Shown here in pieces: positions 10,749-61,009 of a stretch of 64,000 nucleotides of DNA. The notes beneath the pieces were generated by a model, which was given only the letters and a program-made list of their open reading frames with translations, had not been told where the DNA came from and did not search any database. The DNA lies in the NCBI GenBank assembly GCA_000002435.2, contig CM018791.1. The stretch is one strand, 5' to 3'. The position numbers and the translations under genes are program-made. The stretch's first letter is position 1, and each line of letters opens with the position of its first letter. The stretch is from Giardia intestinalis. Its lineage: Eukaryota.

Positions 10749-10755
10749 CTTAGGT

Positions 10756-10762: not shown

Positions 10763-10774
10763 GCTGTACAATGT

Positions 10775-28248: not shown

Positions 28249-31200
28249 ATGGTTATGGGCCGGCGCAGGCCTAAATATTATCTTTATATTGATGGATGTT
28301 ACTCCAAAAAGGGCCACGTGTGCTCCCTAAACAACAAAGCACTCAATCGACTGCTGGACTATGCAAGAACAACCTCCGAAAATATCTCCTTCATCTTTCA
28401 GTACCTCGGCAGTTGCACAAAGAAGTATGCTCACAAGAATAAAATACCCCATTTACAAGTCAGTTGCGAGGTGTACAAGCGCTTATTCTATGAATGCTTT
28501 TCATTTATATCCTCCAGCTGGTATACACTTCTCATAGATGTCTCTCTGTTTCTCTTAGCATCCTCTGGCTTCACTATCAGATGTATCGGGCTAGATCTCT
28601 TTGCCACGTTCTATGCAATCCCTATAAATATTTCCCAGATATCTCGTACAGTCAGTCAAGGTAGAAAGCTCACTACATCATCGCTTCAGTATATTGATTT
28701 ACCACTAGATAGGTCTGATGCAGTGGCTACCTTTCTTCGCAACAACCAGGAACGCTTGCTGCGTGGAATTAACAGCCTAGCGGCAAGCCTTACGCGATTC
28801 AATCCTGCATTTCCTTTTCTCGACATGCTCGCCATTCACTTTGCATCAACCCTTTGCTTCCTGTGGCTGTATTTTACATACTGTACATTGTTGTTGAACG
28901 TAGGTGAGGCCAACATCAACTACCGCAATCTAGCGGGCGCGCTTTTGGTTGCATATACAATTTCAAGGAATATCGGTGTACTTGATAATCTTGCAGGTGC
29001 AATCCAAGTTTCTATCAATAGTGGTCAGATACTACTCCAACGCAACGTAGAAATTCTATTAGACTATTACAATCTTTACCATAGAGTTCTGAGCAACGCT
29101 CTCAGCAACAAAGATGTCATGCTACGTGGCCCCATGGCTACTCCGCGTGGGTTACCCAGCAGCTTCGCGGAAACTGAAAAGGGCACCCCGTGGTCCAGTC
29201 TCCTCGCTGTGTTAGAGTGTTCCGCCGGTTTGTCTACTAATGCTATGGTGGTCAATGACATTAACTTCCTCTTCGACAAAGATCGGACTCGATCGTTTCC
29301 AGAACAAGGTGTCCTCTGCTACTGGCGTCTGATTATTAAATCTCTATCACTGGTATTCCAGGAGCAAGTGGAAGATGCAACTAAGCCTCTCCTTACAGAG
29401 GATAAAAGCTCTACCTCACTCATGTTGATTGAAAAGCCAGCGTCGGTACTGGACTCCAACGCAGCCCGTGTTCTAGCCCTTTTTTCGAAGACGCGTACTG
29501 AGATATTGTTTAGGTTGATTAATGGTGTCTCCGATGGTAGCCACGTTCTTGTACACGCACCGTCCATCTTCCACTGGGCTCAGCACCATATACTAACGTC
29601 TCGGGTTGTCTCGGCAACAATGCTTAGGCTTCTCGTTCTGGAACTAGTTAAGTTCCGCCAGATGTGCCTTTTGGCGGGGACCAACATACAGATCTCTAAT
29701 GTTTATTTGCACGGGATCGCAACAGTGCTCTTGATGGACTGTCCCTACGCGCTCTTTAATCTCATTTTGGCTATGATAATGTCGCAGCAATCCTCTAAAG
29801 ATATTGAGCCAGACGTGGTAAGACAGCTGTTTATTCACTGTGCCGAGCCTGATACTCTAGAGGCAAGCTTTTTGGCTGACTTTCTCCTCCCAGCTGACGC
29901 AGAGAAGGTGGTCAGCGATTCCTTGCTTCTTCAGATGCGTGATGATATCTCTATTATTGCAATCGAGCTTCTAGGAGCTCTCCCGTACCTAAATAACGAG
30001 CTATCACGAATTTTTCTCAAGCGCCTCTACAAGTTACTGTACCACCTGCGCACGTTTTTCTTTACTAAAATCATTGCGCTTGAGCCATCAGTTCAAGCTG
30101 CATACGACACTTTCTTATCTAAAATACATGATATGCTTCTTCAGCATGCAATGGTAATAGTTTCCTCTGGGTTTTCTAATGCGCAAATTCAACTAGACGT
30201 GATACTGAAAGCCCAAGTCAATAACCTATCACTCAGTACAGAAATGGAGAGGCGAGAATTTCCTCAGGGCAGTACTGATAGACTCCATGATGAGCCCTCC
30301 AACCAAAGCAAGTGCACTGCTGTTCGGCAAGCAGATAAGCACAAGAGACTTACTAGTACCTTAACAAATATGACTTTATACGACCACAGAGTATCTTGTA
30401 CCGACGATGCTGACCTATTAAGCTTTACATCTCTTCAGTCGTTGCAGTCAAAGTGTGGTCAATACGACTCACGACCATATATTTTTGAGTGCATAAAGGC
30501 TTCTCGTTTCTGGGAAGTATTAATAACAGTTACTTCCAGCTGTTTTCGTGACAGGCTTTCTAACGTTAAGTATGGGGTAGACCATTTAGTCACTGACTTC
30601 CTCTGCTGCTCGTGCTTCCGAGCGCTTGTCAACATTCTTCACGAATCACCTTCAAGTAACTATGCTTGCCCTCCCACTCTAACGATTAGAAGGCCGTCAT
30701 CTTCAGCACACGTCCATCCTTACAGTCCCTTTGAGTCCAATATTACTAACTCGGCTTTTTTTCACGATGCCTCAGTCAACTTGTTTGAACAAATGCCATT
30801 TCAAGACCATGAGGTGAGTGCTGGGGCGTATTATAACACTGGAGATCCTAACGATACTACTGATAATGCTGGGTCAAGCCTTTCTCTAGGGAAATCAACT
30901 ATAAGTGTAATAGGATCTCAGGCCGTGCGCCTTTCGGCTTACTTGACTGCTATTTCGATGACGCCACTTGAGCCTCAGGCGCCCTCCCAGTCAATAAAAG
31001 ACGAGCCTTATCATACTCTGGCATTTGCTGCAAAGAACCGTGAGCCAGGGATAGATATACCCCAAGCGTTTCTGGCACAGCAGGAAACAGGTTCCTCGGA
31101 GCCTGCACTGCTTCGCTCACCAATAAGCACGTATACCCTTATTGCAACGATTCTTTCGGAGACAACCCTTATGAAGACGCTACTCTCTTGTGTGCGGGGG

Positions 31201-41261: not shown

Positions 41262-44200
41262 CTATTCTTGTGTCAGCTTCACACACATTGCACGTAGCTT
41301 ACTAACTTCCAGCTCCCGTGCCGCAAGCAGCCTGTTACGCTTTTCAAGCTCAAGCTTTAATGTTTCTATCTTGTATTCATAAGACTTGGCTTTGTTCTCC
41401 AAGAATGCGAGCTTGTCCCTGATATCTTTATTTTCTTTTGTCAATAGCAAAAGCTTCTTATTGAGCGTCTCATTCTGGTTGTATGCTCGCCCAAGCTGAG
41501 CATCCTTGGTTGCTGCATCGATGTGGAGCTTCGAAACAGTCTCTTTCATCTCGTTGTTTTCGCTGACCAGCGACGCCGTTTTCCCTAGCGCATCTCCTTT
41601 AATGGCCATCAGATTATCGAGGTCTGTCTTCAGTCGTAGGTTTTCGTTAATCAAATTAACCACGTTATCACCCCTGTAATTGTCCTTCACCTCTTCTATG
41701 AATTTCATCATGCGATCGTTTTGGAATATCAGCTCCTGTATCCGCAACTGCTTATCTTCCACGTCCTGTGTCTGGTTCGTGTACTTGGCAGAAAGGTGAT
41801 CAAATTCCTGCTGAAGCTTTCGCAGAGCGTCTCCGTCAGTTCCCTTGTCCAGCCGGAGATTTTCGTTCTCCTTTCGAAGATAGTCTAGTTCGCCGCTAAG
41901 GACTTCAGATGACTTAATGAGCTTTGCGTTCTCTGCCTCCAGACTGTCCTGCCTAAGTTTGCTTGTCTCGTAGTTCAACTTCAGCTCGGCGATGGTGCTC
42001 TGCGTCTTCAAATAGGTATTATGAAGGTCGATCCTCTGGTTTTCTGTGTCCTCCAACATCTTTTTCTGATCAGTGTACAGAAGCTCATGATAGGATATCT
42101 TTTCCTTGGCAATGGCCACTTGATTTATTAGATGCTCCTTTTCCGTCGTTATAGCAGCGTTTTCCTTACGGACAGAGGAAAGCTCCTCCTTAAGCTCTGC
42201 AATTTGCTGCCTAAGTTCTGATTTGTCGCTCTCAAGTTGCTGCACCCGATCGTTGAGAGCAGCAACCGTTACAATCCTCTGCTGGTTGTCTAAAGAGTTG
42301 ACCGTGACGTCATGGAACATATCTGCTTTTTCTTTCATTTCCTGCCGTAAATTGCTCAGTTCCTGCTTGTACAGCTCCAGCTGCTGCTCCAGATTGTTAA
42401 TTCTGGCTTCTTTATAGTTAAAATCGGCGGATATCGCCTCGAACTCCTCTTTCATCCTGTTATACTCGACCTTAAACTCTTTGAGCTCGCCTTCTCGCGT
42501 CTTCAAGGTGCCTTTTAATGTTTTGCCGATTTCTTGCATTTTCTCCAACTTTGCAGCAGTTTCCTTTAACTCTGTCGTGACTCGCAGCTTGTCTTCTCGA
42601 AGCCTTCGGACCCGTTCTCTCAGACGAATCAGTGCACCAAGCTTGTCCTCTGTGGTCATCAAGCTAACCTCAAGACGGTAGATAAACTTTTCGCGCTCAA
42701 TAACCAGTGCTTGGTTGATAGAGGTAAGTTTCGAAACGCGCTTTTCAAGCTTCTCAACAGCATCTGACCTATCGCGCACCTGCAGCCCTCGTTCAGCCAG
42801 CTGCTCGTTGAGAGTGTTAATCATATCGCGCATTTTTTCTACTTGTCCTTCCCGTGTGTACGTGTCAAGCTGATCCTTAAATTCACGGGCTTTTTCGACA
42901 GACTTGTTTATGCGTTGCTCTTTCTGGGCCAATTCGTCGTGTAGTGTTCTTATTTTTTCTTCAAGAAGCAGCTTCTCCGCTTTGACTGAGCTAAGTTCTT
43001 TGTCTAGCTCCTTGATCTTGTCCTGCAAACCTATGCTTTGTGTTTCCAAGGCTGTCTTTTCAGCAACCACCTTTTGCAAGTCAAAGTCTAGCATGCCGTG
43101 CATACCAAGGATCTTCTCGGCCTCTTCGCTGACCACACGAAGCTTTTCTGTCAATGCTTGATTTTCCTGGTTGAGCGTTTCCGTTGTTTCCTCATACCCC
43201 TGGATGAGAGTTTGAGCTGTCTGCATTTCTTGCAGAGTGGCAGCTCTCTCTTCATATATGTCTCTATAGATTACCTCTTTTAGATGGTTGAATCCTGCGC
43301 GCCACGCATCTGTGGAGTAAAGCAGGTCGAAAGAAAGATTAACGAAGTAGCTATCCTGCTGAAAGATTTTATAGATTTTGCTCAGTTCTGGGTTGCCACG
43401 AAGGTCCTCGAGAACCGGGTTTTTGTGCCCAAGGACCTTAGCCTGAGATGAGGTCATACTGGGCATCTTCATTTCTTCAGGCTTGGCCAGAACTATCGGC
43501 ACAGATGAGTTTGGTGAGTGCTCAGCCAACGCAACAGGCAGCCCGGGGAACTGAAGGCTAAGAGGGTCATCCGTGACCGTTTGGTTGAGCTCCATCATGG
43601 CTGACCTTTGAGGTGAGCCCTGCCGGCTTTCTCGTCTACTGACACTGTTACTTATGGAGGGAACCAGGCTGAAACGCGGAGCCGTCTGCTTGACCTGCGT
43701 TTGATAGCGAAGAAGCTCTGCAAGTGCAAGAACGTGTTCCGGGGTACCTGTGTTTGCTTGAACTCCAAAATCGGCAACCTTACGGCCATCGCCTACTCTA
43801 TACTCTCCGTCTTCACAGCTGGAATAGCTACCAGTGCTGAGTAAATCCTCATCCAACGTATTATCACGCTTACGTATAATGCTTTCCACAGTACTATAGC
43901 CTCCTGCGGGAATAACGCCCTTAGAGCTAGTGAGTTTTTCTTTATATTTAGACTGACACTCTTCCGTGTTTCTTGTGAGCGCTCTTTGGGGGCGCGGACT
44001 AAATTCTTGATCTGTGTACTCACTGTACTCGTAAGTATCACTAGAATCGTACTGGGAAGTAGTGTCATAAGCCCTTCTACGAGACTGCTCTAGGTATTGC
44101 AGATTTTCCTGTGGAGGGGGGCATGAACGTGTGGAGACTGGACGCGAGAGGCTCTGCCTCTTAGTGCGTTTTCTACTGCGTTTTGCCGGAACAGAAGTAA

Positions 44201-44504
44201 AAGACCCTATTTGCAATTTGCTCACGTCCCGGGAGCTTGCGGTTTGTGATCTCTTACGAGACTCGGTGCGATGCGCTTCGTTTGTGGAAGATGGCCGTAT
44301 ATTCTTCACAGCATCCCCTCCTACAGAATGGCTTCTATGGACATCACCCTTACTCGCGTGCTGGCGGGCCTGGAGATTTGCACGCATCCGGGCGAGGACA
44401 TCTAGATTCATGGTATTCATCTCGGTAGTGAAGGCAGCTCTTCTCTGTCCAGCGAAAGAGGAAGGCGGAGCATTGCTGGGCTTGACGTGCCTATTAGCCT
44501 TCAT
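41262..44504 (-). CDS. Long coiled-coil protein (1080 aa), hypothetical. The N-terminal 300 aa are basic and S-rich; the rest is heptad-repeat coiled-coil.
   Basis: ATG confirmed (cat at 44502-44504). Extended E/K/L/Q-rich heptad segments ('LEKMQEIGKTLKGTLKTREGELKEFKVEYNRMKEEFEAI...LEQQLELYKQELSNLRQEMKEK'). No motor or ATPase motifs. Confidence 0.75.
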   Translation of the reverse strand: MKANRHVKPSNAPPSSFAGQRRAAFTTEMNTMNLDVLARMRANLQARQHASKGDVHRSHSVGGDAVKNIRPSSTNEAHRTESRKRSQTASSRDVSKLQIGSFTSVPAKRSRKRTKRQSLSRPVSTRSCPPPQENLQYLEQSRRRAYDTTSQYDSSDTYEYSEYTDQEFSPRPQRALTRNTEECQSKYKEKLTSSKGVIPAGGYSTVESIIRKRDNTLDEDLLSTGSYSSCEDGEYRVGDGRKVADFGVQANTGTPEHVLALAELLRYQTQVKQTAPRFSLVPSISNSVSRRESRQGSPQRSAMMELNQTVTDDPLSLQFPGLPVALAEHSPNSSVPIVLAKPEEMKMPSMTSSQAKVLGHKNPVLEDLRGNPELSKIYKIFQQDSYFVNLSFDLLYSTDAWRAGFNHLKEVIYRDIYEERAATLQEMQTAQTLIQGYEETTETLNQENQALTEKLRVVSEEAEKILGMHGMLDFDLQKVVAEKTALETQSIGLQDKIKELDKELSSVKAEKLLLEEKIRTLHDELAQKEQRINKSVEKAREFKDQLDTYTREGQVEKMRDMINTLNEQLAERGLQVRDRSDAVEKLEKRVSKLTSINQALVIEREKFIYRLEVSLMTTEDKLGALIRLRERVRRLREDKLRVTTELKETAAKLEKMQEIGKTLKGTLKTREGELKEFKVEYNRMKEEFEAISADFNYKEARINNLEQQLELYKQELSNLRQEMKEKADMFHDVTVNSLDNQQRIVTVAALNDRVQQLESDKSELRQQIAELKEELSSVRKENAAITTEKEHLINQVAIAKEKISYHELLYTDQKKMLEDTENQRIDLHNTYLKTQSTIAELKLNYETSKLRQDSLEAENAKLIKSSEVLSGELDYLRKENENLRLDKGTDGDALRKLQQEFDHLSAKYTNQTQDVEDKQLRIQELIFQNDRMMKFIEEVKDNYRGDNVVNLINENLRLKTDLDNLMAIKGDALGKTASLVSENNEMKETVSKLHIDAATKDAQLGRAYNQNETLNKKLLLLTKENKDIRDKLAFLENKAKSYEYKIETLKLELEKRNRLLAARELEVSKLRAMCVKLTQE

Positions 44505-50174: not shown

Positions 50175-53100
50175 CTATGACATAGAATCCCTTATCTCTA
50201 TCAACGCTTTGAGGCTCCCACTTGGCTCCACAAGACTCTGCGCGACTGCATGGGCAATGTCGTCCACAATGGCTGGGCTTCCACGGGGCTCTTTCCCAAT
50301 CTCCTCTTTCTCTCCTTTCACTGTATAATTAAAATAGTACGTAAATAATTTAACAATGCAATCTGCCAGGCATGCGAACAAATCATAAACAAATGTATGA
50401 AGAAGAGTCTCCCCGCCAGTGCTGTCAAGAAGTAAGATCCTTTGATACTGATGGACAGTATAGTTGGAGAAGTGTCGGATAACTGTGCCTACAGCCGAAG
50501 AGCTTTTGTGCTTGCAAAGAGGGAGCTTGATGAGTATGTAGACCAGAAAGAAAAGCCTTAATAGAGTGTCGTGCCAATCACCCTCATCGTGCTCAATAGG
50601 CAACTCCAGGCAACTGAGGGCGGTGGAGATAAATAGAGCATCAGCATCTCTCTGCTTAGGCACCCCGATTGCATCAATTTCAAGAAACAGAAGATTATAT
50701 AAATCTGTAACTACTGCCATGGGAACCTGGATGGATTGAAGAATGGCTTCCACCTGATCCTTGCCTGCAATACTTTGCACAAGGGCCTTCCACTCGTCAG
50801 TTGTAAAGAGTAGTTGCAACGCCTTCTCAACAGCAACAACACACATGACCTGCTTAAAAACCGTTAGAGATAGAGTAAGAGTATCTAAGACATCTTCGTA
50901 GACGATGATCATCGCTGAGGGCTTATTGTGTGCATAGCATGCTGTGAGCTGAAATGCCAAAAGGTTTGGTACTATGCCTTCAGGAAGCATGAGCTTGCTC
51001 GCAATAATCTGACGCACACAGTAAAGGACGTGCACGATGGTCTTTGTAGTTATACTGCTGTCGTCTGATGAGGAGGGGAAGAGGCCTCTAAAGTAATACC
51101 TACCGAGGATTATGTGGCAGTATGGTAGTATTGTATGCACAAAGCGTTTATGGATGTGCAGACGTCTCTCCTCCACCTTGGCAGAAATGTACACACCCAC
51201 TAGCGGTCGTTCATGGTCTGTCGTGGAAGACGGTGACTTCAATGTAGAGACTGACAATGATGCCAGAGAGATTTTGGAGTCTGAATCTGTATCCTCTGAT
51301 ACAATGGAGGAGCAAACGCTAGAAGCAATATCGTCTGTGCTGAAGGTACCAAAGAACTTCCCTGTGGCATAGAAAAGTGCATCTGCGATCAATGGATGCA
51401 GTGAGGGCTGAGAGCAATCTGCTTTTAGGGTAGCGAGCATTGCAGTAGCGTCGTCAGTAGATTGGATGACCATAAGGGGAAGCGCACCCAAAAGGGTATA
51501 TTGACACACAGCTAGGAAGTGAGTCAGGTCTGGTGCCGCCATTCTAACTGTTACTAAAAGGCGAAGAACATAGGATGTTGGGGTGGAGTAAGCGATAGGC
51601 ACCCCGTCTTCTGTCGCCTTGTTGTGAAGGTGAGGAAGCAAGATCCTTATAAGTACAGCTCGAATATTCTCTTTACCTTTTTCACTGAACTGGGTGAAGC
51701 CCCGCGCCACAAGTGCCAAGAGGTATAAGTGCTTGGCAATAGACCGGGTAGTTGTGGAGGCCATGCTCATGTCATCATTCAGGTGGGCACAAATATAGGC
51801 TAACTCACTCGTCTCTTTTAAATATCCCGCTTGCACCAGCAACCTACTTGAGCTAACACAGGTTCTAGCGTATGCTTTACATAGTATGTGAAGGCTCTGT
51901 GCACCACTATGCGCAGACCCCCTATAGAATAGATCCCATCTAGCATACTGCGTAAGACACGAAACCACATGCTCAATAACGTGTACATCTGCTGCGTCGA
52001 TCATAAAGCAGAGTAGTGACATGATGCTGCTGTACTGATCAAGCAGATTTCCCGCTGTCATATGTACACCGGAACCACTCAGCTCTTTACCCTTCTCTGC
52101 ACCAAAGAGACAATGGATATGTATCCTTGCTCCCAGAGCGATGACACGGAAAGCGTATGTTTGGAAAAGTTTTCTATGCTCATCGCTTGCAATGTATGCT
52201 TCAATCCATGCTGCAGCAGACTCTGTCAGTACTGTACACTGGAGAATGTTTGGAAGAATGTCTGTAAGCATGCGTGTAATAGATAGGAGCATATTTGCAG
52301 CAGAATCTGCAGAGCAAGTAGTGGTATCAAGGCCGCGTCTAGTTTGCCGCACAAACCTTGCCTTGGGTCGCAAAACCTCAGAGCGGTTAGGCTTGCCATA
52401 AAGCGGTACGGCTTTGCATTTGACCTTCGGCTCTAGCTCAATAGGAACGTCTGTGTTGTTCCTGTTTATTAAATTGCAGGGGCACTGATCTTTCTGAGAA
52501 ACACAGAGAGGCACTACATCATCTCGGTTATCACCTAGCTCATCTGCCAGGATGATAGACAATCCGCAGAAATTAAAAAAGATAAGTGCCAGTGTAGTAT
52601 CTGAAAAGTGAGAAAATAGAATAGCATCGGCTGAAGCGCTTGCTTGATCGTGACAATTGGCAGTGCACTTGGGAAAGTTGAAGAGAAACCCGTGCAGGCG
52701 TCTCAGCACTTCTCGTTGGAGGTCTCGTAAAATTACTCTGTGCTGATCTCCTAGACTGAGCACAGCGCGGAAGAAGGAACTAAGTCTATTCTCATTTTGA
52801 CTTGTAATGCAAATCAGAAGGCCTGCAGACCTGTTAATACTATTATTACCGTGTTTCCACACTGTCCCGATGGGTGGGAGGGTCGCGCGCATGGCTGGCA
52901 GAAGTATGGAGGTTATCCCCACGGCCACTGTGCTATCTCTAGTGAAGATCACTATGCTCATTATCACGGTCATGATGGTGTTAAGCTGCACGGCCAGAGA
53001 TGCTACGGATACTTGTGACTCTACGTAGTAGCGGTCAACCAAGAGCACAAACAATTGAACGACAGACTTTATCAAGGCAAGCGATCCTGTTGTTCTGAGC

Positions 53101-55205
53101 AGATCCTTCAGCTTTGGCAGGAGGCCTAGCTTAACGATATAGTCCGGAAGAAACCGGCCGTTCTGAATGGGTTCTGCAAGAGATGTTAAGGATGCATCGA
53201 GAAGAGAAACAGACGGGCTTACGCTGCTAATCGTCCCGATGTAGATGTCCAGCAAGCAAGAGTCAATGTCCTGTAAGAGGCCTGTTGAAGTATCTAATGA
53301 TACGGAAGCGTCCGCGTGATTATTCTTAGCCAATTGTAATGCACCGGAGAGACGACTAAGCAAAGATATAATGTGAATTTGCAACTGAACATTCTTGGAG
53401 ATAATGGAGAAGAAAGACAAGAAGAAACTAAGCAGCTGGGAGCTGCACTGTTTGGCCTGCGTAGAAGAGTCATCACGCAAGGCAAGAAGAAATATAAATC
53501 CTAGCATGTCGAGCATCAGACGAATAAACGTTGTAATTGCTTGATTAGATAATTGAGCGCTACATTGTCTGTCACAGAAAGAAACAATTATTGGAGGCAG
53601 GTCTCTCCATAACACAGAGGCACCACTAGATAACAGTGCCAATTCGAACATATACTGATATGAAAGAGCGGTAAGGCCAGCCAGAGAATCCTTCATGGAA
53701 GTCTTCTGATTGGTAATGATTGCCAGCTGTTGCAGGAGTGTCTGGAGGACCACTTTTGGATGGACCGTGTGAGAGTTTTGAAAACTATTAGATGATATTA
53801 GTGTGAGAAGCTTTGTTAGCACAAGTAAAACAGGTGGGGGTTTGAAAGTAGCTTTTGGCAAAACGACAGTTCGATAAAGGAGTAGGGGCTTATATAACTC
53901 ATCTTTAACACTCACTGTTACGTCCACTGCGTGCTCTAAGATGCTCTGGATCAGCTGCTCTGCGGAAGACCTGCTTATGGTGGAATTCTTGGTACCAGCG
54001 GTGAATGGATTGAAAAGAACCTCCAGCAGAAGCATAGCCGCCTGATCATCTTCCAAGAGTAAGGAGAATATTGACGTGGCATCCGTGCACACAATTGAAG
54101 GAGTGTTTTTGTTGCCAAGAATATCTAGCAAAAGGTGAAGCTGACGATTCAGTAAGTCACAGCTGATATCTGCGATGAAGTAACGCTCATATAAAACGTC
54201 CAAAGAACGGGTTCCCAGGATTACCTGACAGGCACTGGAATAAAACATTTGAAGAGACTTAACGGCAATCTCCAATAGGGCTGACTGTTCGTCAGGGGGG
54301 CAGACAGCATTCTCAGTGTCACCAAAGATGAGCACAAGGGAATCGGTGTACTGAAGTAGCAGAGACTCGGCCTCCCTTGTCGTAAAGGTTGGTAAGAGTG
54401 GCTGATTCGCCGCAGCCTCCTGTTGCCTGAGCTGTACGTATAGCTCCATAGAAACAGAAAGATGTAAAAGATCTATAGATACAATTTTGGCTTGCAACGA
54501 TATGTTAAGTCCATCAAACACATCCTTTTCGTCCTGCTGGTGAGGATCAAGAAGGGGTTTCCACTGTGTTTGTGATAATGTTGAAGGACGATGCTGGACT
54601 ATCTCTTTCCGCAAAGATATAAGGTCTTGGAAAATCACCGTGAGTTGACTAGCAATCAAGGTCTGACTCCATTGTGAAGACACGAGCATGTCACGTACAG
54701 AGTCGATAGCATCTTCTAAGCGTTGAGCGAGAGCCTTTGGACCGCAGACCTTATTCTCTTCGGAAGTGAACCTGAAGGTAGGGGTGTCGTATTCTGTCTC
54801 GCTAAGGACAGCAATTGATACGTCGGAAGTCTGAAACCAGGCTGGTCGATAGCTTATATGTAAAGACGAGTCTTGAAGGGATACCTCAACGCGAGGTGGA
54901 GGTTGCTGTAACGCTTGAGTGCACGGTTGAAGAATTTGTGCATTCAATAGAAGGGTGCTGATGGGATCATTATCTACGTTAGCAGGTGCATGAAGTATAT
55001 ATGGCAGTGTCTGTGCAAATCTTTTCAAGCTTCCAAGGGACTGTGCAACTTGCTTGCAGCCAGCCGATACGGCTCCAGTTGGAGAGCGAGCAACGCACTC
55101 TGGAATAGGCACACTGCAGAGGGCGGGCAGGCGCAACATAGAGATTCGAGCAGGAGCCCGCAGAATAGTATCCCTACCATACACTACATTTTTAAGTATT
55201 AGCAT
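50175..55205 (-). CDS. Large hypothetical protein (about 1676 aa). The start is uncertain.
   Basis: The ORF-track start at 55211 is a GTG. In-frame ATGs are at 55205 (M3) and 55139 (M25). No family recognised. Helical, Leu-rich. Confidence 0.7.
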   Translation of the reverse strand: MLILKNVVYGRDTILRAPARISMLRLPALCSVPIPECVARSPTGAVSAGCKQVAQSLGSLKRFAQTLPYILHAPANVDNDPISTLLLNAQILQPCTQALQQPPPRVEVSLQDSSLHISYRPAWFQTSDVSIAVLSETEYDTPTFRFTSEENKVCGPKALAQRLEDAIDSVRDMLVSSQWSQTLIASQLTVIFQDLISLRKEIVQHRPSTLSQTQWKPLLDPHQQDEKDVFDGLNISLQAKIVSIDLLHLSVSMELYVQLRQQEAAANQPLLPTFTTREAESLLLQYTDSLVLIFGDTENAVCPPDEQSALLEIAVKSLQMFYSSACQVILGTRSLDVLYERYFIADISCDLLNRQLHLLLDILGNKNTPSIVCTDATSIFSLLLEDDQAAMLLLEVLFNPFTAGTKNSTISRSSAEQLIQSILEHAVDVTVSVKDELYKPLLLYRTVVLPKATFKPPPVLLVLTKLLTLISSNSFQNSHTVHPKVVLQTLLQQLAIITNQKTSMKDSLAGLTALSYQYMFELALLSSGASVLWRDLPPIIVSFCDRQCSAQLSNQAITTFIRLMLDMLGFIFLLALRDDSSTQAKQCSSQLLSFFLSFFSIISKNVQLQIHIISLLSRLSGALQLAKNNHADASVSLDTSTGLLQDIDSCLLDIYIGTISSVSPSVSLLDASLTSLAEPIQNGRFLPDYIVKLGLLPKLKDLLRTTGSLALIKSVVQLFVLLVDRYYVESQVSVASLAVQLNTIMTVIMSIVIFTRDSTVAVGITSILLPAMRATLPPIGTVWKHGNNSINRSAGLLICITSQNENRLSSFFRAVLSLGDQHRVILRDLQREVLRRLHGFLFNFPKCTANCHDQASASADAILFSHFSDTTLALIFFNFCGLSIILADELGDNRDDVVPLCVSQKDQCPCNLINRNNTDVPIELEPKVKCKAVPLYGKPNRSEVLRPKARFVRQTRRGLDTTTCSADSAANMLLSITRMLTDILPNILQCTVLTESAAAWIEAYIASDEHRKLFQTYAFRVIALGARIHIHCLFGAEKGKELSGSGVHMTAGNLLDQYSSIMSLLCFMIDAADVHVIEHVVSCLTQYARWDLFYRGSAHSGAQSLHILCKAYARTCVSSSRLLVQAGYLKETSELAYICAHLNDDMSMASTTTRSIAKHLYLLALVARGFTQFSEKGKENIRAVLIRILLPHLHNKATEDGVPIAYSTPTSYVLRLLVTVRMAAPDLTHFLAVCQYTLLGALPLMVIQSTDDATAMLATLKADCSQPSLHPLIADALFYATGKFFGTFSTDDIASSVCSSIVSEDTDSDSKISLASLSVSTLKSPSSTTDHERPLVGVYISAKVEERRLHIHKRFVHTILPYCHIILGRYYFRGLFPSSSDDSSITTKTIVHVLYCVRQIIASKLMLPEGIVPNLLAFQLTACYAHNKPSAMIIVYEDVLDTLTLSLTVFKQVMCVVAVEKALQLLFTTDEWKALVQSIAGKDQVEAILQSIQVPMAVVTDLYNLLFLEIDAIGVPKQRDADALFISTALSCLELPIEHDEGDWHDTLLRLFFLVYILIKLPLCKHKSSSAVGTVIRHFSNYTVHQYQRILLLDSTGGETLLHTFVYDLFACLADCIVKLFTYYFNYTVKGEKEEIGKEPRGSPAIVDDIAHAVAQSLVEPSGSLKALIEIRDSMS

Positions 55206-55216
55206 TTTCACATTGG

Positions 55217-56905
55217 ATGGTCCTCTGGCTACTCCTCCTCGCGCTTACTACATCTGCATACCTCCCCAGCAGGATGCTCGTCCTGTACGACGGCCCGGAG
55301 ATCGCGTCTAAAGACCTCCAGCTCATCCTGACGGGTGCTCGGATTGCTTCTCGTTCGATGCGAATGGATGACCCTAAATTTAAACTTCCGAAGCTTGTAC
55401 TTGATGGAGTCCCCCAGTACTCTCATATAGCCATCATTGGTCGGGGGAACCATCTGACTGCAGAAAATTATAATGAGCTGCTTAAATATGTGGAGGGAAC
55501 ACTCGATCCATACAGCTCCAAGTTGACGGAGGACGAGAGAATGATTCTTCCGACGTCTAGCAGCGATAGATGGACCACAGCGATGAAGTATCCTACAGAG
55601 TATGTCTATAAAGGCATCTTTGAGCCGCTGCCAGGAGCATCTATTGCAATATTCACCGACGCACATGCTTGCCAGAGGCTTCTCAACCTACTTAAAAACC
55701 TGGGTATGAAGGCCATTAGGAGCACCTCTTCTGAAATGGGGGCCCTCAAGCTCAGCACGGCTTTGAAGGAGAAGCTGTCTCGTGGGGAACAATCTGGGTG
55801 TGACATTATAGGTGACGTCAGCTATAAGCCTCTAAAACAGCCTTTGTCAGATATACTCTCATTTACCCCCAACTTCCTTTCAGATGTACAGAAGGCACAT
55901 GAAATATTCACATTTGAGAGCTCCTCCCGTGAGCTGACCGCAGGACTGGTCTGGCAAGGCCTTGAGAACAATGCCCGGGTGATTGCGATAGGCTTTCTCG
56001 GTGCCTTGGCTGACACGACCATGATGATGAGCAATGCTTCTTCAGAGCAATACTTTAAGGAGTGGAATGCTAAAGAGGGAACAAACCGCAGCATATATGA
56101 ATACAGCACCCTTCCCGAAGGCTCTATCCAGGCATTCTATCAGCTAAGTCGCTGGTTTGGGTTTGCAAAGTGCATGTTACGCGTTTCTGTTCTAGATGCG
56201 CGGCCAGTTCAAGACCCATCAGGATGTGACAACACTGTTCCGGCTCAGCACGGGGAAGCTCATGGAAACACAGCTGTGGTTGAAGGAAACCTTGTCCACT
56301 ACATTGTCAAGATAGAGGAGCTAGTTAATAATACGCTTTGGAGACCTTATGTCCCCAAAAAGACTGCGGTACGTCTGGACGAACTAGTGACAAACAACGC
56401 CCGTCGCCATCCAGAAGACTATGGCCTGTTTCCGTCTGAAACACGGCAAATCAAAAAGCAAATATCAGCGCTGTCTAGCGGCCTGTATAGCAGGTGTCTT
56501 CAATCCGCCCGCAAGGACTTGATCAATCAGACACAGGACATTACCGTGACGGACGCTCTTTCCTCCATATACACAGACATACAACTGCATGAGTCCATCA
56601 TGGGTACTTTAATATCTATGAATTTAGCCCTGCTGGACGAGAAGAAAGGTCTCTTTGATTTGGTGATCGTTCCAGATCTGGTTAGGTCCTACCACATGAG
56701 ATTAGATTACAATGTTCCTGGATATAATAGAATCAAGCTCATCCACCACCTGCACGTGAACATGGACCGCACAGATGCTTTCTATAAACACTATGCCGAT
56801 TGGCCTCTGTTTGTGGGGCTGGGGTGTGTACTTCTATTGGCCGTGTACGCAGGAATACTGCTTCTCACACACAAGGAAACGCGTACGGAAGAAAAGGAAG
56901 AGTAA
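55217..56905 (+). CDS. Type I membrane protein with similarity to the oligosaccharyltransferase 48-kDa subunit (OST48/DDOST/Wbp1).
   Basis: ATG confirmed. Signal peptide 'MVLWLLLLALTTSAYLPS'. C-terminal TM helix 'WPLFVGLGCVLLLAVYAGILLL' plus a K/E tail. Motif-level matches to human DDOST: 'RMLVLYDG' versus 'RTLVLLDN'; 'NARVIAIGFLGALAD' versus 'NARVIFSGSLDFFSD'; 'YQLSRWFGFAKCMLRV' versus 'ALSRWVFKEEGVLRV'; 'MRLDYNVPGYNRI' versus 'FKVDYNRLGYTHL'. Confidence 0.5.
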   Translation: MVLWLLLLALTTSAYLPSRMLVLYDGPEIASKDLQLILTGARIASRSMRMDDPKFKLPKLVLDGVPQYSHIAIIGRGNHLTAENYNELLKYVEGTLDPYSSKLTEDERMILPTSSSDRWTTAMKYPTEYVYKGIFEPLPGASIAIFTDAHACQRLLNLLKNLGMKAIRSTSSEMGALKLSTALKEKLSRGEQSGCDIIGDVSYKPLKQPLSDILSFTPNFLSDVQKAHEIFTFESSSRELTAGLVWQGLENNARVIAIGFLGALADTTMMMSNASSEQYFKEWNAKEGTNRSIYEYSTLPEGSIQAFYQLSRWFGFAKCMLRVSVLDARPVQDPSGCDNTVPAQHGEAHGNTAVVEGNLVHYIVKIEELVNNTLWRPYVPKKTAVRLDELVTNNARRHPEDYGLFPSETRQIKKQISALSSGLYSRCLQSARKDLINQTQDITVTDALSSIYTDIQLHESIMGTLISMNLALLDEKKGLFDLVIVPDLVRSYHMRLDYNVPGYNRIKLIHHLHVNMDRTDAFYKHYADWPLFVGLGCVLLLAVYAGILLLTHKETRTEEKEE

Positions 56906-56908
56906 AAT

Positions 56909-59287
56909 CTATCGTTTGACATTTCTCCGGAAGCTCAGTTTGGTAGTCTGCGACTCCGCCTTGGGGATCTCTTTAGAGACCTGGGAGACGACCTCAAGTG
57001 GTGTACCAATTGCTAGCCATCTGTTGAGTTTGATCATGCGCTCACTAACTTCTGTACAGCAAATGGCAGTGGCTTTGTTGGCTATTATAATGCTGTGGTT
57101 GTACACTAAGAAATTACTCGTGGTGCCTGTACATGAGGACTTGCCAGAAGGATTCACAATAGCTCCAGAGAAGAGTGTGCGAAAGCCGCTGCTGGTACGT
57201 TGAGCAACTGTCATGTGACTCGTCAGTGCAAGGCATAGTTTGATAATGTCCCCGGTCTCCGCAGCCAGGGACGTGTCGGACATAAGGTCTGGAAGCTGCA
57301 CGTATGAGCGTAGAAACTCAAATAGGGTATCTTTATGGAGCTTGAGGATCTTGTCCAAGACATCCTCCAGTTGACGAGCAACCTGATTAGCCTGGTGGTA
57401 GCTCTGGGAAGCCATACCTGTCTTTGGCAGTGGACCCACTAGAGCATATAGGAGAGAAAGGTGATCTGACCCCTGACAAAGAAGTGGCGCGCTGCTGGCA
57501 CCTAGCAAATCATCCCAGCCAACCTCAAGGCCTGCAGCAATCAGACAGGCCTCTCTCTGAACACCGTAATAGTATGCAACCATTAAGAAGAGCGCAGTCC
57601 TGGGAGAAACAGGTAACAGCGTGGCAGCAAGACCAGCTACCGAAATGCACAGTGTTGGTTTATGTGTAACTGAAGATGACCTGGCCGTCGTCAAGAGGTA
57701 AGTATAGTACAGTATCTGCTTAGTTAATGAGAGCTTAGCAGAGTCTACTAGATCAAGTAGATCGGTAGTCTCGAGACAGAATGAAAACGATGGAAAAGAC
57801 TCCTTGAATCGCTGCGAAAACGACTGCAGCATCAGATATATGTGATCTATGGGCTCGAACTGGAGCGATGAATGTGGATTGATAAGCATCTCGTTCTCAG
57901 CGACATACTTTGGATAGAGGAAGATGCATGTGCCGTGCTGAGTGCGCCCAACACGCCCTCTCCGCTGCATGTGCGATGACATGGTGATGGGTACAACCAC
58001 CAATACGCTTGTGCTGTGCTCAGGAAGATACACCATCCGCTTTTGAAGGCCCGAGTCAATCACATACCTGATTCCAGGGATTGTCACGGAGGTTTCTGCT
58101 ACATTGGTGGCCAAGATGATCCTTCGCCTGCCAGTAATTGGGCTGAAAGGATACATAGCTTGCTGAGCAGGGATTTTGGAGTGGAATGGGATGACTACCC
58201 ATGGCCTCCCACCCTGCTTTCCAGCCCCTAACACTGACAGTCGCTCCCATAGAAGGGCAAGGCAAACTGCTATGTCATCTGCACCGGAAAGAAACACCAA
58301 GATTCCATCATCCAGGGAGGTATTAGTGGTATGCAAGGTGACAATCTCGTCAACAATCTGCAAAATGTAGTCCTCTCTGCATGGTTGGAAGGATACGTCT
58401 GTTGAATACTGTGGATTGTCTAGTGAGATGGATGTAGAGGCAGTGTATCGACGAACATATTGCAGCAGCTGGACCTCATCCAAGGTTGCAGACATCAAGA
58501 TCACATGTACCCTAGGGTTGTACCTGATCACACGAAGCACTATAGCTAGAAGTAGAATCTGGTTACTGGAGCGCTCGTGGATTTCGTCCAGAATAAGATA
58601 TGATACGTTTAGCAAACATGGGTCATCCAAGAGGTATTGCAGGGTGACACCATCCGTCTGGTAGATCAGCTTGGTCTCAGGCGTAACCGTTGATTGAAAT
58701 CGGACCGCGTATGCAACAGCCTGACGAAGATTGCCCGGTAAAGCTTGCTGCTGGTATCCTGCAAGACTGATAGCAGCCACTCTGCGTGGCTCAGAGACGA
58801 TGATCCTTCCTTGTGGCTCGGTACTAAGCAAGGCAGCTGGAATACAGGTTGACTTACCAGAGCCAGTCGCCCCCTTAACAAGAACCACTTGGTTGGAAGC
58901 CAGCGCTTTTTGCAATGACGCGAAGTAGGTCCAATCCTTACCCAGCTGTGGGCCGCAGGAAAGACTTTTAACGGCCCGCACAGAGGAGGAGAGCGTACTA
59001 TTCTTACAAAGGTCTGCCAAGAGTTGCATGTTCTTGCTATAATATCGCTGTACTTTCTCTCCAAGTGCTGAAGCGTGTTGGTCAACTACGGAGCGCGAGT
59101 GTATTGACCTTTTGAGGAGCACTGATCCTGGGTCACGTATCACTTGAAGGTCGAGGTTGTGCAGTGAAAGAGACGTGTGCTCTTCCTCAAAAAGCTCATG
59201 GTCACGAATGAACTGAACGCACGGCCTCATGAGTCTGTTAAATAAAACAGGATTTGGTGAGACATGGCTCGTCCACATACCGCTCAT
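56909..59287 (-). CDS. DEAH-box (DExH) ATP-dependent RNA helicase.
   Basis: Helicase motifs: I 'GATGSGKST', II 'LDEIHERS', III 'SAT', V 'TNVAETSVTIPGIRYVIDSG', VI 'QRRGRVGR'. ATG at 59287 confirmed. The alternative M20 at 59230 is discussed in the findings. The stop is 3 nt from the stop of the convergent gene 55217..56905. Confidence 0.9.
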   Translation of the reverse strand: MSGMWTSHVSPNPVLFNRLMRPCVQFIRDHELFEEEHTSLSLHNLDLQVIRDPGSVLLKRSIHSRSVVDQHASALGEKVQRYYSKNMQLLADLCKNSTLSSSVRAVKSLSCGPQLGKDWTYFASLQKALASNQVVLVKGATGSGKSTCIPAALLSTEPQGRIIVSEPRRVAAISLAGYQQQALPGNLRQAVAYAVRFQSTVTPETKLIYQTDGVTLQYLLDDPCLLNVSYLILDEIHERSSNQILLLAIVLRVIRYNPRVHVILMSATLDEVQLLQYVRRYTASTSISLDNPQYSTDVSFQPCREDYILQIVDEIVTLHTTNTSLDDGILVFLSGADDIAVCLALLWERLSVLGAGKQGGRPWVVIPFHSKIPAQQAMYPFSPITGRRRIILATNVAETSVTIPGIRYVIDSGLQKRMVYLPEHSTSVLVVVPITMSSHMQRRGRVGRTQHGTCIFLYPKYVAENEMLINPHSSLQFEPIDHIYLMLQSFSQRFKESFPSFSFCLETTDLLDLVDSAKLSLTKQILYYTYLLTTARSSSVTHKPTLCISVAGLAATLLPVSPRTALFLMVAYYYGVQREACLIAAGLEVGWDDLLGASSAPLLCQGSDHLSLLYALVGPLPKTGMASQSYHQANQVARQLEDVLDKILKLHKDTLFEFLRSYVQLPDLMSDTSLAAETGDIIKLCLALTSHMTVAQRTSSGFRTLFSGAIVNPSGKSSCTGTTSNFLVYNHSIIIANKATAICCTEVSERMIKLNRWLAIGTPLEVVSQVSKEIPKAESQTTKLSFRRNVKR

Positions 59288-61009
59288 CCATATGTCACAG
59301 AGCTGTGCAATGGGTCGTATATGTTGCTAGAGTCGCCCCAGCTCATAATAGGTAGAAATAGTGACAAAAGTAAGCCCTGGGAATTGGCCGACAATAGGCT
59401 TCTCTTGCCCTACCAGGAGCTGAGCCGGGCACATATCGGATTATCATATGATGGTCACAATCTCGAAATAACCAACCTTGGGCGCAACAGAATTGTCATT
59501 TTACTCCAAACTTGCGACAGCAATGGTGGCAACGGTGATAGTGAGGAAGCATGTCCCAGAAAACAGCTGATAATGGAGCCCAAAAACTCTCTGGAAAGGG
59601 TGTGCTCTCCCTGCATTCTTTCTATTCATCCACACTCGTTCAAAGATCACTATGGAACATACTATTATGGATGCCCTCTTTTTCCTCCTCTATGCATCGT
59701 TCCAATAGGTGGTATGGTCGCTCGTGCATTTCAGATGTTAGAAGAGATTGATACTTTGCTGTCCTCTTCGACTTTGCAATCCAATCAATCTACTTATCTA
59801 AATATTATTTTCAATCGGTACAGCCACTCAAAGTTGGTGCTAGCGGAATTTGTCGATTGCACGAATCCGCAGATTCTTGGGCCGTTGCTGGACGGAGCCA
59901 AGAAGTTGGTTGACTTAGAGCCATATTATACTACCCTCATCGATATAACTACTTGTCTCCACGAAGCAAGAAGTGTACACGGCCTTGAGCTCCCAATAGA
60001 CCTAGATATCTATAAGTTCGAGAAGCCACCATGCTTTCCAGAGCACCAGCATGCATATGAAAAGGTGTGCCCGCAAGAGTGTCACACACCCATAGAGTCT
60101 ATAGATCATGAGCAGCTCACCGAATTTACAGACTTCTTTTTAACAGATGTAACAATTCTTTCCATAAATGCCAATCTGCAAAGTCTATTTGAGACTACCC
60201 TACAATACACTACCCTACAAGCTCCCCCCAGTATTGATGTTCTTGAGTGGGCGATCACTGGCTTGACACCTGTCCTAGAAGATGGCCGGCTTTGCTGTCA
60301 CCCGGACATAGGTCGGTTAAAGTCCTATTACAGCAGACACAAGTACCTTCTAATAGTGTACGAAGGAACCGAATCTTCAACTTGGGTAGACGCCATTCTA
60401 GAACCTGAAGCAGAAAAGAATGTATTGTTTGCTCTGATAAGGAGCTCACTAGGCACGGAAAAGCCGGTCTATATTATGTCTAAGAAGCAGTTCTCTGGGT
60501 TTCTCTACTATCAGAATTCTGGGGATATATCATATTTCCCCTTTCCACCCTCACGGGCCTACAGATCCTCCTCTAGCACACCTCCCACTTTGGTAGCAGC
60601 AGCGACAGAATCTACAACTAAGGCGATTAGCTCCGATGCTGAAGCAAGTAAGGAGCCGTGTCTCCGGCAATCAACCTCTCCGAGCATTCCACAATGTGCA
60701 AAGGAAAATGAAGAAGTAATTGATATTTCTGACAGCGAAAGCTCACAGCCCAGCTCTGAGGCTAGGGAAGCAACACGTCCATCTGCATCACAACAACCAC
60801 CCCAGCTTCTGGACTTGCCGAATTTTAGTGAGCGCAGGGTAATAAAGGTGGATCTCCCCGTAATGAGGATTATCAACGGGTACGGCGTTGTGGATTGCGA
60901 CGACATTTCGATGTCTGTCTGGCGTGCGCTTGTAGATGCCCTTAATAGCGACGGTCCAGGACCGTGCCTTGCTCTCCGGTTGCATGAGGATGACGCTGGG
61001 CAGGCGTAG
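59264..61009 (+). CDS. FHA-domain-containing protein (putative).
   Basis: ATG at 59264 confirmed, preceded by 'gttaaataaaacagg'. The N-terminal 'IIGRNSDKSKPWELADNRLLLPYQELSRAHIGLSYDGHNLEITNLGRNRIVIL' fits the FHA consensus (GR...SR.HA...N.G). Acidic S-rich C-terminus. Confidence 0.6.
   Translation: MARPHTAHPYVTELCNGSYMLLESPQLIIGRNSDKSKPWELADNRLLLPYQELSRAHIGLSYDGHNLEITNLGRNRIVILLQTCDSNGGNGDSEEACPRKQLIMEPKNSLERVCSPCILSIHPHSFKDHYGTYYYGCPLFPPLCIVPIGGMVARAFQMLEEIDTLLSSSTLQSNQSTYLNIIFNRYSHSKLVLAEFVDCTNPQILGPLLDGAKKLVDLEPYYTTLIDITTCLHEARSVHGLELPIDLDIYKFEKPPCFPEHQHAYEKVCPQECHTPIESIDHEQLTEFTDFFLTDVTILSINANLQSLFETTLQYTTLQAPPSIDVLEWAITGLTPVLEDGRLCCHPDIGRLKSYYSRHKYLLIVYEGTESSTWVDAILEPEAEKNVLFALIRSSLGTEKPVYIMSKKQFSGFLYYQNSGDISYFPFPPSRAYRSSSSTPPTLVAAATESTTKAISSDAEASKEPCLRQSTSPSIPQCAKENEEVIDISDSESSQPSSEAREATRPSASQQPPQLLDLPNFSERRVIKVDLPVMRIINGYGVVDCDDISMSVWRALVDALNSDGPGPCLALRLHEDDAGQA

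Follow-up and report, generated by a model that had tools for sequence, protein, structure and literature searches.

The GL50803_6617 gene and its product

The window analysed is a 64,000-nucleotide stretch of Giardia intestinalis DNA, in which the gene GL50803_6617 occupies positions 55217..56905 of the plus strand. The ORF list contains exactly this frame, from ATG to TAA, bearing out the 562-aa coding sequence originally predicted there. The encoded protein is an exact match to XP_001704720.1 / A8BUM7 (Giardia intestinalis WB), still named "hypothetical" in NCBI and UniProt. The features considered here are listed below, with the basis of each assignment.

55217..56905, plus strand: complete coding sequence of GL50803_6617, divergent OST48/Wbp1 homologue (ORF list, exact identity to XP_001704720.1, dN/dS, mass spectrometry)
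55217..55258, plus strand: signal-peptide-like N-terminus MVLWLLLLALTTSA, aa 1-14 (sequence; helix 2-12 in the model; SignalP-positive, Jedelsky 2011)
55268..56002, plus strand: alpha/beta domain at the N-terminus on the lumenal side, aa 18-262, probable counterpart of OST48_N, with a class-I glutamine-amidotransferase-like fold
55502..55636, plus strand: insertion 1, aa ~96-140, gap in human OST48 (hhalign), conserved in the fornicate alignment (dN/dS 0.06)
55967..55981, plus strand: NNARV motif, aa 251-255 (comparison with 12 canonical OST48/Wbp1 sequences)
56117..56776, plus strand: connecting helix and beta-sandwich middle domain, aa ~301-520, equivalent to Pfam PF23358 OST48_MD (hhalign without the transmembrane segment, 94.5-98.5%)
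56351..56566, plus strand: insertion 2, aa ~379-450, helical, within the middle domain, gap opposite human 350-352 (hhalign)
56672..56725, plus strand: PD-x10-DYN-x2-GY block PDLVRSYHMRLDYNVPGY, aa 486-503, canonical counterpart LPDVYGVFQFKVDYNRLGY with the same spacing
56801..56866, plus strand: single C-terminal transmembrane helix, aa ~529-550 (Kyte-Doolittle; model helix 529-559; aligned to the OST48 transmembrane helix)
56867..56902, plus strand: short cytosolic tail THKETRTEEKEE, aa 551-562, K at -3 only, no canonical KKXX/KXKXX

The neighbouring genes encode a DEAH helicase, eIF5B, a kinesin, Tfb2 and a domain-less 1678-aa protein. Because these are unrelated housekeeping genes, the gene context is uninformative on function, as expected in a eukaryote. 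No further gene related to the oligosaccharyltransferase (OST), the enzyme complex by which proteins are glycosylated, was found among the 25 large ORFs of the window, and a divergent relative (P0005) is not syntenic with GL50803_6617.

The annotation as hypothetical and the overlapping antisense ORFs in the mechanical ORF list could indicate that the frame is spurious or belongs to a pseudogene in decay, a reading whose probability we consider negligible. Intact orthologues of 524-579 aa occur across Giardia lineages. Compared with an 85%-identical orthologue, the gene is under strong purifying selection, with dN/dS ~0.05 in every segment with estimable dS (overall dS is near saturation) and the lowest value, 0.019, at aa 451-520. 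Five unique peptides with a Mascot score of 350 were recovered by mass spectrometry from an organellar fraction also containing BiP and Sec61 (Jedelsky 2011). Proteomic detection and purifying selection therefore refute this reading. This co-fractionation with mitosome-enriched membranes is the sole experimental record of the protein (Jedelsky 2011). Literature searches turned up no paper that names GL50803_6617 or its orthologues OST48, the only mention being that of a hypothetical protein in the 2011 proteome.

The protein has a type I membrane topology with a signal peptide, a lumenal bulk, one C-terminal transmembrane (TM) helix and a short K/E tail, as had been predicted; hydropathy agrees with the published calls (SignalP positive, TargetP secretory, TMHMM one TM; Jedelsky 2011). 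The N-terminal segment aligns with the signal region of human OST48 in hhalign. Windows of 19 residues with a Kyte-Doolittle value ≥1.6 start only at 526-535, delimiting a single TM-grade segment (core ~529-550) in which L541, A542 and A545 are conserved in fornicates. The 12-residue tail has three K/R and five D/E and ends in EEKEE. The di-lysine (KKXX/KXKXX) ER-retrieval signal is absent from it, whereas 12 of 12 canonical OST48/Wbp1 sequences pair a K at -3 with one at -4 or -5; P0006 (KKND) is the only fornicate protein to carry the signal. The absent di-lysine tail was counted against a function as an OST subunit.

Homology to OST48 in the middle domain, the transmembrane helix and probably the N-domain

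Searches made directly with GL50803_6617 were empty. In Pfam, hmmscan at E≤10 returned no family, including OST48_N (PF03345) and OST48_MD (PF23358), and the direct scan against PF03345, suggested as a check in the original prediction, was thus outright negative. No match was found by phmmer against all PDB chains, nothing by an NCBIfam scan, and a canonical OST48 HMM scores the protein at only 13 bits. These empty results reflect divergence rather than a lack of homology, and they are the reason why the OST48 relative was missed. The homology is visible only via intermediate fornicate sequences or via structure.

A first, word-indexed homologue search gave Giardia-lineage sequences only. A profile built from Giardia sequences alone matched proteins of G. 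muris (E=1e-124), Spironucleus (1e-30) and Dysnectes (1.6e-25) among 1.84 billion representatives, and one family member was found per fornicate lineage recovered. With PF23358, the Dysnectes orthologue passes the cutoff of 27.9 bits (47.5 bits), the G. muris orthologue is borderline (27.5 bits), and two other relatives give E=0.002 (P0005) and E=0.029 (P0006); with PF03345, P0005 and P0010 give E=0.28 and E=0.1. The widened fornicate profile, searched against 5.8 billion sequences, reaches canonical OST48 proteins at E=9.2e-11 (P0019) and E=6.5e-9 (P0020), the match at 6.5e-9 being to a metazoan OST48. P0019 and P0020 carry both PF03345 (159-277 bits) and PF23358 (179-180 bits).

Against human DDOST (reference verified as 456/456 identical to PDB 8b6l_N), BLASTP gave two collinear HSPs, 244-405 versus 242-388 (E=2e-4) and 472-506 versus 367-402 (E=0.033). 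Together with identically spaced motifs, these HSPs bear out the collinear motif blocks that had been noticed from the sequence. The two proteins share only 26% identity across 180 residues, gaps making up 28%. This value and the empty family searches could favour the view that there is no kinship with OST48, the resemblance being due to chance short motifs and a generic topology, or to a GATase1-like/IFT52-like N-domain fold only. We consider such an explanation highly improbable, and apart from the matches of the widened profile, several other lines of evidence go against it.

Comparison by hhalign with the canonical OST48/Wbp1 alignment gave 97.2% for the Giardia sequences only and 99.3-99.4% for the fornicate family, the latter profile aligning end to end over 385 columns (8-557 versus 36-454). 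The PD-x10-DYN-x2-GY block is the core of the Giardia-only match, the high-confidence region begins at the NNARV block, and the N-domain alone in local hhalign reaches only 29-64%, a value counted against the OST48 assignment. The hydrophobic TM segment was discarded as the source of the score, as 96.5-98.7% persists after removal of this segment and the tail. The controls collapsed: reversed sequences gave 0.3-0.5%, the profile-profile score of 160.7 (99.3%) compares with 21.5 (0.5%) for the reversed control, and block-shuffled controls, with motifs kept and collinearity destroyed, scored 34-41. The similarity to OST48 exceeds chance.

The structure was predicted with AF2 from a 19-sequence fornicate-only alignment and no templates; canonical OST48 sequences were left out to avoid circularity. 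This alignment superseded an earlier one of 6 sequences, with which AlphaFold was unusable (pLDDT 39). The resulting model (pLDDT 78.6, pTM 0.77) has the two-domain lumenal fold and C-terminal TM helix of solved OST complexes, with middle-domain strands at 321-330, 360-377 and 452-512. OST48/Wbp1 chains occupy the first six places in Foldseek (E 1.8e-16 to 1.1e-13); the match that follows them, at 6e-6, is about ten orders of magnitude away from the best. No family other than OST48/Wbp1 covers more than the N-domain. A GATase1/IFT52-type protein (class-I GATase-like, GIFT, ThuA-like) was also considered and rejected, as such families match the N-domain only.

The view that there is no kinship with OST48 is effectively refuted by these results. 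The original prediction of an OST48/Wbp1-like protein was to be abandoned if the DDOST-family probability fell below ~50% or if an unrelated family matched better; the hhalign range of 97.2-99.4%, kept high without the TM segment, and the structural matches in the PDB, where OST48/Wbp1 is best by a wide margin, support it. The homology takes in the beta-sandwich middle domain and the TM helix at the C-terminus, and probably extends to the N-terminal alpha/beta domain. GL50803_6617 is a new divergent member of the known OST48/Wbp1 family, and we hold it to be almost certainly a homologue of OST48. It is strongly supported as a highly diverged but genuine OST48/Wbp1 relative, which contradicts published "STT3-only" inventories.

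Conserved blocks, insertions and the role of the protein

NNARV is the invariant block that closes the N-domain in the OST48 family, with N251, N252, A253 and R254 invariant in the canonical alignment. The internal spacing of NNARV(I/V)xxG and PD-x10-DYN-x2-GY is identical to that of canonical OST48. The columns invariant in the canonical alignment, NNARV..G and PD-x10-DY-x-(K/R)-x-G, are both kept in the Giardia protein.

Two insertions, together ~115 residues, change the lumenal domains, an observation counted against a function as an OST subunit. The first is kept in diplomonads (LDPxSSxLxEDERxxLP ... FEPLPGAS) and absent from canonical OST48; model confidence is low at 113-132. The second is fornicate-specific, present in all Giardia lineages and shorter in Spironucleus and Dysnectes, with model helices at 387-394, 406-421 and 423-438; its dN is low (0.12) and its dS saturated.

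The R-x6-Y-x-R motif, which contains the Glc3-binding tyrosine (Wbp1 Y383 / human Y418), is invariant in 12/12 canonical sequences. In diplomonads the register of the motif is lost: Giardia R518 is kept and positions +7 to +9 read H-Y-A, with an alignment uncertainty of +/-1 residue. The Dysnectes orthologue retains R-x6-W-x-R. The out-of-register motif was likewise counted against a function in the OST. Its absence is consistent with the Giardia donor, which is GlcNAc2-PP-dolichol only.

We propose that GL50803_6617 is the Giardia orthologue of OST48/Wbp1, the 'beta' subunit of the oligosaccharyltransferase in the ER and a type I membrane protein without catalytic activity, and that it probably acts as an OST subunit. 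It would enter the ER membrane by way of its signal peptide and its TM helix, and there assemble with STT3. Other very divergent subunits would probably join them, for instance a protein with a Ribophorin I domain, whose gene (CH991769:937870-939393) has been reported from Giardia as new and expressed, and which is a second accessory-subunit homologue. OST48/Wbp1 belongs to OST subcomplex III in yeast and human, and by analogy the Giardia protein may be a structural scaffold on the lumenal side of STT3. Given the GlcNAc2-only donor and the R-x6-Y-x-R motif not being kept, recognition of the distal glycan is an unlikely role; the protein would more plausibly contribute to assembly or stability, or to the placement of STT3 and the nascent chain. 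Both constrained lineage-specific insertions may substitute for contacts of missing subunits.

Wherever the structure of an OST is known, Ost2/DAD1 and Swp1 keep OST48 in place. Neither was found in Giardia in published surveys, which counts against a function as an OST subunit and is compatible with an alternative, that an OST48-derived protein was repurposed. Such a protein would not associate with STT3 and would have another lumenal role in the ER or endomembranes (scaffold, receptor, chaperone-like), the Giardia OST being functionally single-subunit. We regard this as rather unlikely, even though it would accommodate the extreme divergence of the protein from the Pfam and canonical models, the loss of both the glycan-pocket motif and the di-lysine tail, and the two constrained insertions, one of them a ~70-residue helical insert. 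In addition, GlcNAc2 is recognised by STT3 residues only, so that a distal-glycan pocket would have nothing to bind in Giardia, and kinetoplastid STT3 functions alone. However, the blocks best conserved with canonical OST48 are precisely the family-invariant NNARV and PD..DYN..GY blocks and the TM helix, the pattern expected if ancestral contacts were kept. A single copy has been retained from free-living Dysnectes to the parasites. The Ribophorin I-domain gene persists in Giardia too, suggesting that surveys missed divergent subunits rather than recording a true absence, and WBP1 is predicted to persist within an OST of four subunits in Trichomonas and Entamoeba, whose donors are not glucosylated either.

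Returning to GL50803_6617 as an OST subunit, we lean slightly towards a multi-subunit OST in Giardia and in diplomonads generally, in which STT3 and the OST48 orthologue would be joined by a ribophorin-I-like protein and perhaps by an Ost2 that has escaped detection, all diverged beyond ordinary searches. With a donor of GlcNAc2 only, OST48 would then serve chiefly as a structural element (assembly, stabilisation of STT3, substrate positioning) rather than to recognise the distal glycan.

Significance and comparison with known oligosaccharyltransferases

The premise of the original prediction, that Giardia is described as having STT3 alone, holds for Kelleher et al. 2007 and Lombard 2016, which list it as STT3-only and without Wbp1; Spironucleus is listed likewise (Lombard 2016). 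With kinetoplastids, Giardia is a standard example of a eukaryotic OST made of STT3 alone (Kelleher 2007; Lombard 2016). This inventory underlies arguments on the growth of the OST complex in eukaryote evolution. It is also a basis of the proposed co-evolution of WBP1 and OST2 with the donor's glucosylated A-branch (Ramirez 2022). That a GlcNAc2-only organism has an OST48 orthologue under purifying selection suggests that the "absence" is a detection failure and that OST48 serves a purpose which does not depend on recognising the distal glycan. If true, a multi-subunit diplomonad OST would break the proposed correlation between WBP1 presence and A-branch length.

The G. intestinalis gene can be re-annotated, and it offers a concrete, expressed and taggable entry to OST composition in a genetically tractable parasite. 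The finding also argues for a renewed search of divergent protists for other subunits via lineage-bridged profiles. Its novelty is tempered because UniRef automatic names already label the G. muris and Spironucleus salmonicida orthologues as the OST 48 kDa subunit.

The nearest relatives are the fornicate orthologues (G. muris GMRT_11437, S. salmonicida SS50377_20677 and Dysnectes brevis EP00768_P009063), alignable over their full length at 26-40% identity and sharing both insertions in shorter or longer form. The Dysnectes and G. muris proteins are nearer to canonical OST48, the G. intestinalis protein being among the most divergent members.

Human OST48/DDOST (PDB 8b6l_N, 6s7o_G, 6s7t_G) and yeast Wbp1 (PDB 6c26_B, 6ezn, 7oci) have the same type I topology, with a GATase1-like N-domain, a beta-sandwich middle domain, one TM helix and a short charged tail, and have the invariant NNARV and PD-x10-DYN-x2-GY blocks in common with the Giardia protein. 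By contrast, the latter is ~110-130 residues longer owing to its two insertions, has only 11-20% identity in structural alignments, falls below every direct HMM threshold, and lacks the Glc3-stacking tyrosine motif and the di-lysine tail. The donor glycan also differs, being GlcNAc2 in Giardia and Glc3Man9GlcNAc2 in the human and yeast systems.

Trichomonas vaginalis and Entamoeba histolytica, with a predicted STT3-OST1-OST2-WBP1 complex (Kelleher et al. 2007), are also anaerobic protists with truncated, non-glucosylated donors and yet keep a WBP1 homologue. Giardia may share with them an OST1-like gene (Ribophorin I domain). Their WBP1 is easily recognised by sequence, unlike that of Giardia, whose donor is even shorter and for which no OST2/DAD1 has been reported. 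Published inventories put Giardia in one class with the kinetoplastids (T. brucei, L. major), whose OST is STT3 as a single subunit; the OST48 orthologue under purifying selection suggests that Giardia lies outside this class, or at least that unsuccessful sequence searches were the basis for placing it there.

Identity and anatomy of GL50803_6617

The 562-residue reading frame predicted at window 55217-56905 was found at exactly these positions on the plus strand, and an exact-sequence look-up identified its product as GL50803_6617 (XP_001704720.1, UniProt A8BUM7) of Giardia intestinalis WB, recorded as "hypothetical protein" by NCBI and as "Uncharacterized protein" by UniRef. The topology proposed with it was recovered as well: a hydrophobic, signal-like N-terminus, a single segment of TM-grade hydropathy (core ~529-550) and, after this one TM helix, a 12-residue C-terminal tail, THKETRTEEKEE. 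Published SignalP, TargetP and TMHMM calls are consistent with this hydropathy-based topology (PMC3044749). Relative to human OST48 (DDOST), the protein has two main insertions.

Features of GL50803_6617
window 55217..56905, + strand: CDS, ATG-to-TAA ORF of 562 codons
aa ~18-262: N-terminal alpha/beta domain, ending in the NNARV(I/V)xxG block
aa ~96-140: insertion 1, conserved among diplomonads; model confidence low at 113-132
aa 251-255: NNARV(I/V)xxG block, family-invariant
aa ~301-520: helix and beta-sandwich middle domain, following the N-terminal domain
aa ~379-450: insertion 2, a helical insert within the middle domain
aa 486-503: most conserved block, PDLVRSYHMRLDYNVPGY; canonical counterpart LPDVYGVFQFKVDYNRLGY, with identical spacing

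Five unique peptides (Mascot 350) were reported from an organellar gradient fraction that also held the ER proteins BiP and Sec61 (Jedelsky et al. 2011, PMC3044749). In a comparison with a Giardia orthologue of 85% identity, dN/dS was ~0.05 overall and likewise low in each estimable segment, insertion 1 included, these ratios being only approximate because dS is near saturation throughout. In insertion 2 and in the TM/tail segment dS was saturated and no ratio was computable; dN was low in both (0.12 and 0.07, respectively).

Gene packing around GL50803_6617 is extreme (window 55200-55220 and 56900-56912). The first ATG of a divergent upstream ORF on the minus strand (55205) lies 11 nt from the GL50803_6617 ATG (55217), with an AT-rich stretch between them, and 3 nt separate the TAA (56903-56905) from the stop codon (56909-56911) of a convergent helicase gene. 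The stop codon is overlapped by AGTAAAA, which resembles the Giardia polyadenylation signal.

Relationship to the OST48/Wbp1 family

A Pfam search with GL50803_6617 gave no match up to E<=10, and no match was obtained among PDB chains by phmmer or among NCBIfam models. The protein reaches only 13 bits against an HMM of canonical OST48/Wbp1 sequences, and the only matches in a word-indexed search of 5.8 billion proteins were from the Giardia lineage (four with 83-93% identity, one with 36%). Pairwise BLASTP against human OST48 gave two weak yet collinear HSPs (Giardia 244-405 versus human 242-388, E=2e-4; 472-506 versus 367-402, E=0.033). The reference proteins were human DDOST, 456/456 identical to PDB 8b6l_N, and yeast Wbp1, 430/430 identical to 6c26_B. 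This failure of direct searches explains why the relationship was missed.

Full-length relatives were found with a Giardia-only profile in an exhaustive HMMER search of 1.84 billion representatives, and an exact look-up identified three of them: G. muris GMRT_11437 (E=1e-124), Spironucleus salmonicida SS50377_20677 (447 aa, E=1e-30) and a protein of the free-living fornicate Dysnectes brevis (462 aa, E=1.6e-25). The Dysnectes protein exceeds the Pfam gathering score for PF23358, the OST48 middle domain (47.5 versus 27.9 bits), the G. muris orthologue lies at this threshold (27.5 bits; gathering score 27.9), and two more Giardia-like sequences score weakly against PF23358. When widened by fornicate relatives, the profile matched two proteins in which both canonical Pfam domains score highly (E=9.2e-11 and 6.5e-9; database of 5.8 billion), one of them a metazoan OST48 that is 63-64% identical to primate DDOST. 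The fornicate intermediates bridge GL50803_6617 to the canonical OST48 family.

Two full-length orthologues came from public Logan read-set assemblies, P0005 (L001 6001-7698, SRR14944320) and P0006. They are 36-42% identical to GL50803_6617, about as distant from it as G. muris, and represent two Giardia-like lineages, which suggests undescribed diplomonad diversity. The P0005 locus, adjoined by a tubulin-tyrosine-ligase gene, is not syntenic with the window.

Profiles were then compared with an alignment of 12 canonical sequences (human, yeast, metazoan). The probability was 97.2% (E=3.7e-11) for the Giardia-only profile, 99.4% (E=3.7e-21, ~200 columns) for a 10-sequence family profile and 99.3% (E=1.2e-20, 385 columns) for a 19-sequence fornicate profile, the last aligning end to end (Giardia residues 8 to 557, human OST48 36 to 454). 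The original prediction had set its floor at ~50%, and this range (97.2-99.4%) lies clearly above it. With the TM segment and tail cut off, probabilities were 96.5% (Giardia only) and 98.5-98.7% (otherwise), so the signal is independent of the hydrophobic TM segment. Reversing the canonical columns reduced the probability to 0.3-0.5%, and shuffling in 10-column blocks left isolated motif blocks only (score 34-41 versus 161); collinearity therefore supplies most of the score. The weak point is the N-terminal domain alone (29-64% in local mode, 92.9% in global mode), with a collinear alignment every time.

AlphaFold2, given the 19 aligned fornicate sequences but neither canonical OST48 sequences nor templates, produced a confident model (mean pLDDT 78.6, pTM 0.77). 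The best six Foldseek matches in the PDB were all OST48/Wbp1 chains from human and yeast OST cryo-EM structures (E=1.8e-16 to 1.1e-13; target-normalised TM 0.57-0.61), and the seventh was ten orders of magnitude weaker. The predicted fold is independent structural evidence for OST48 homology.

Other genes in the window

15-12633, +: seven variant-specific surface protein (VSP) genes, head-to-tail tandem array, each matching Pfam PF03302 (107-148 bits)
13987-14106, +: full-length 5S rRNA gene, Rfam RF00001 (85 bits, E=8e-18)
24760-27834, +: 1024-aa ORF, polysaccharide lyase family 8 (PL8), all three domains matched
28225-33522, +: 1765-aa ORF, no Pfam match at E<=0.001
41262-44504, -: 1080-aa ORF, no Pfam match at E<=0.001
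50175-55211, -: 1678-aa ORF, no Pfam match at E<=0.001
59264-61009, +: 581-aa ORF, no Pfam match at E<=0.001

The VSP array at the window start coincides with strongly positive GC skew and confirms that the DNA is from Giardia. Between it and the next genes lies a GC-rich (0.56-0.60) stretch of ~3 kb (12700-15800), which holds the 5S rRNA gene and no ORF of at least 140 aa. The PL8 ORF matched the N-terminal helical (E 2e-15), super-sandwich (4.5e-6) and C-terminal beta-sandwich (3.6e-4) domains; because these glycosaminoglycan/xanthan lyases are of bacterial type, the gene may have entered this gut parasite by lateral transfer. The four large Pfam-less ORFs may likewise encode Giardia proteins that have diverged beyond the reach of direct family searches.

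Proposed role and published OST inventories

In yeast and human OST, subcomplex III consists of WBP1/OST48, OST2 and SWP1. WBP1/OST48 and OST2 jointly make the pocket for the donor's terminal Glc3, whose terminal glucose is stacked by Wbp1 Tyr383, while the GlcNAc2 core is recognized by STT3 alone (Ramirez 2022, PMC9701220; review PMC10859629). The human counterpart, Y418, lies inside an R-x6-Y-x-R motif invariant across the canonical set. All members of the Giardia family keep the first arginine (R518), but their tyrosine and second arginine are not in register; the Dysnectes orthologue still has R-x6-W-x-R. Loss of a Glc3 pocket would be expected, because the sole Giardia donor is GlcNAc2-PP-dolichol (PMC2064103). 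GL50803_6617 keeps the invariant blocks of the ancestral family, its membrane-proximal middle domain and a TM helix in which small residues are conserved. From these features we infer an ER-membrane scaffold that would assemble with STT3 and serve in assembly, stability or positioning, not in distal-glycan selection.

Several observations run against a scaffold: no Ost2 or Swp1 is reported for Giardia (PMC4973528), the tail lacks the di-lysine signal present in 12/12 canonical sequences, and the divergence of the protein is extreme. The main rival reading, in which a descendant of OST48 has taken on a role apart from STT3, strikes us as rather unlikely. In favour of the scaffold, Tolba et al. 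2013 reported a previously unannotated, RNA-seq-supported and expressed Giardia gene that encodes a conserved Ribophorin I (OST1) domain (WB scaffold CH991769:937870-939393; PMC3792122). This gene is a possible OST1 subunit, also missing from published OST inventories, and suggests that other Giardia subunits were missed, not truly absent.

Giardia is indeed described as STT3-only, as the original prediction assumed. According to Kelleher et al. 2007, genes for non-catalytic OST subunits are missing from the G. lamblia genome (PMC2064103), and Lombard 2016 (Table 1, PMC4973528) credits Giardia and Spironucleus with Stt3 but not with Wbp1, Ost1, Ost2 or Swp1. The searchable literature yielded no paper naming an OST48 in Giardia or citing these gene IDs as such. 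In UniRef the orthologues from G. muris and S. salmonicida already carry the automatic name "OST 48 kDa subunit", while the G. intestinalis gene is still hypothetical. GL50803_6617 corrects the widely repeated statement that OST48 is absent from Giardia and weakens the proposed tie of WBP1 presence to the length of the glycan A-branch. The protein is a divergent member of the known OST48/Wbp1 family and does not represent a novel type of system. The surprise is moderate, not major, and the finding is directly testable.
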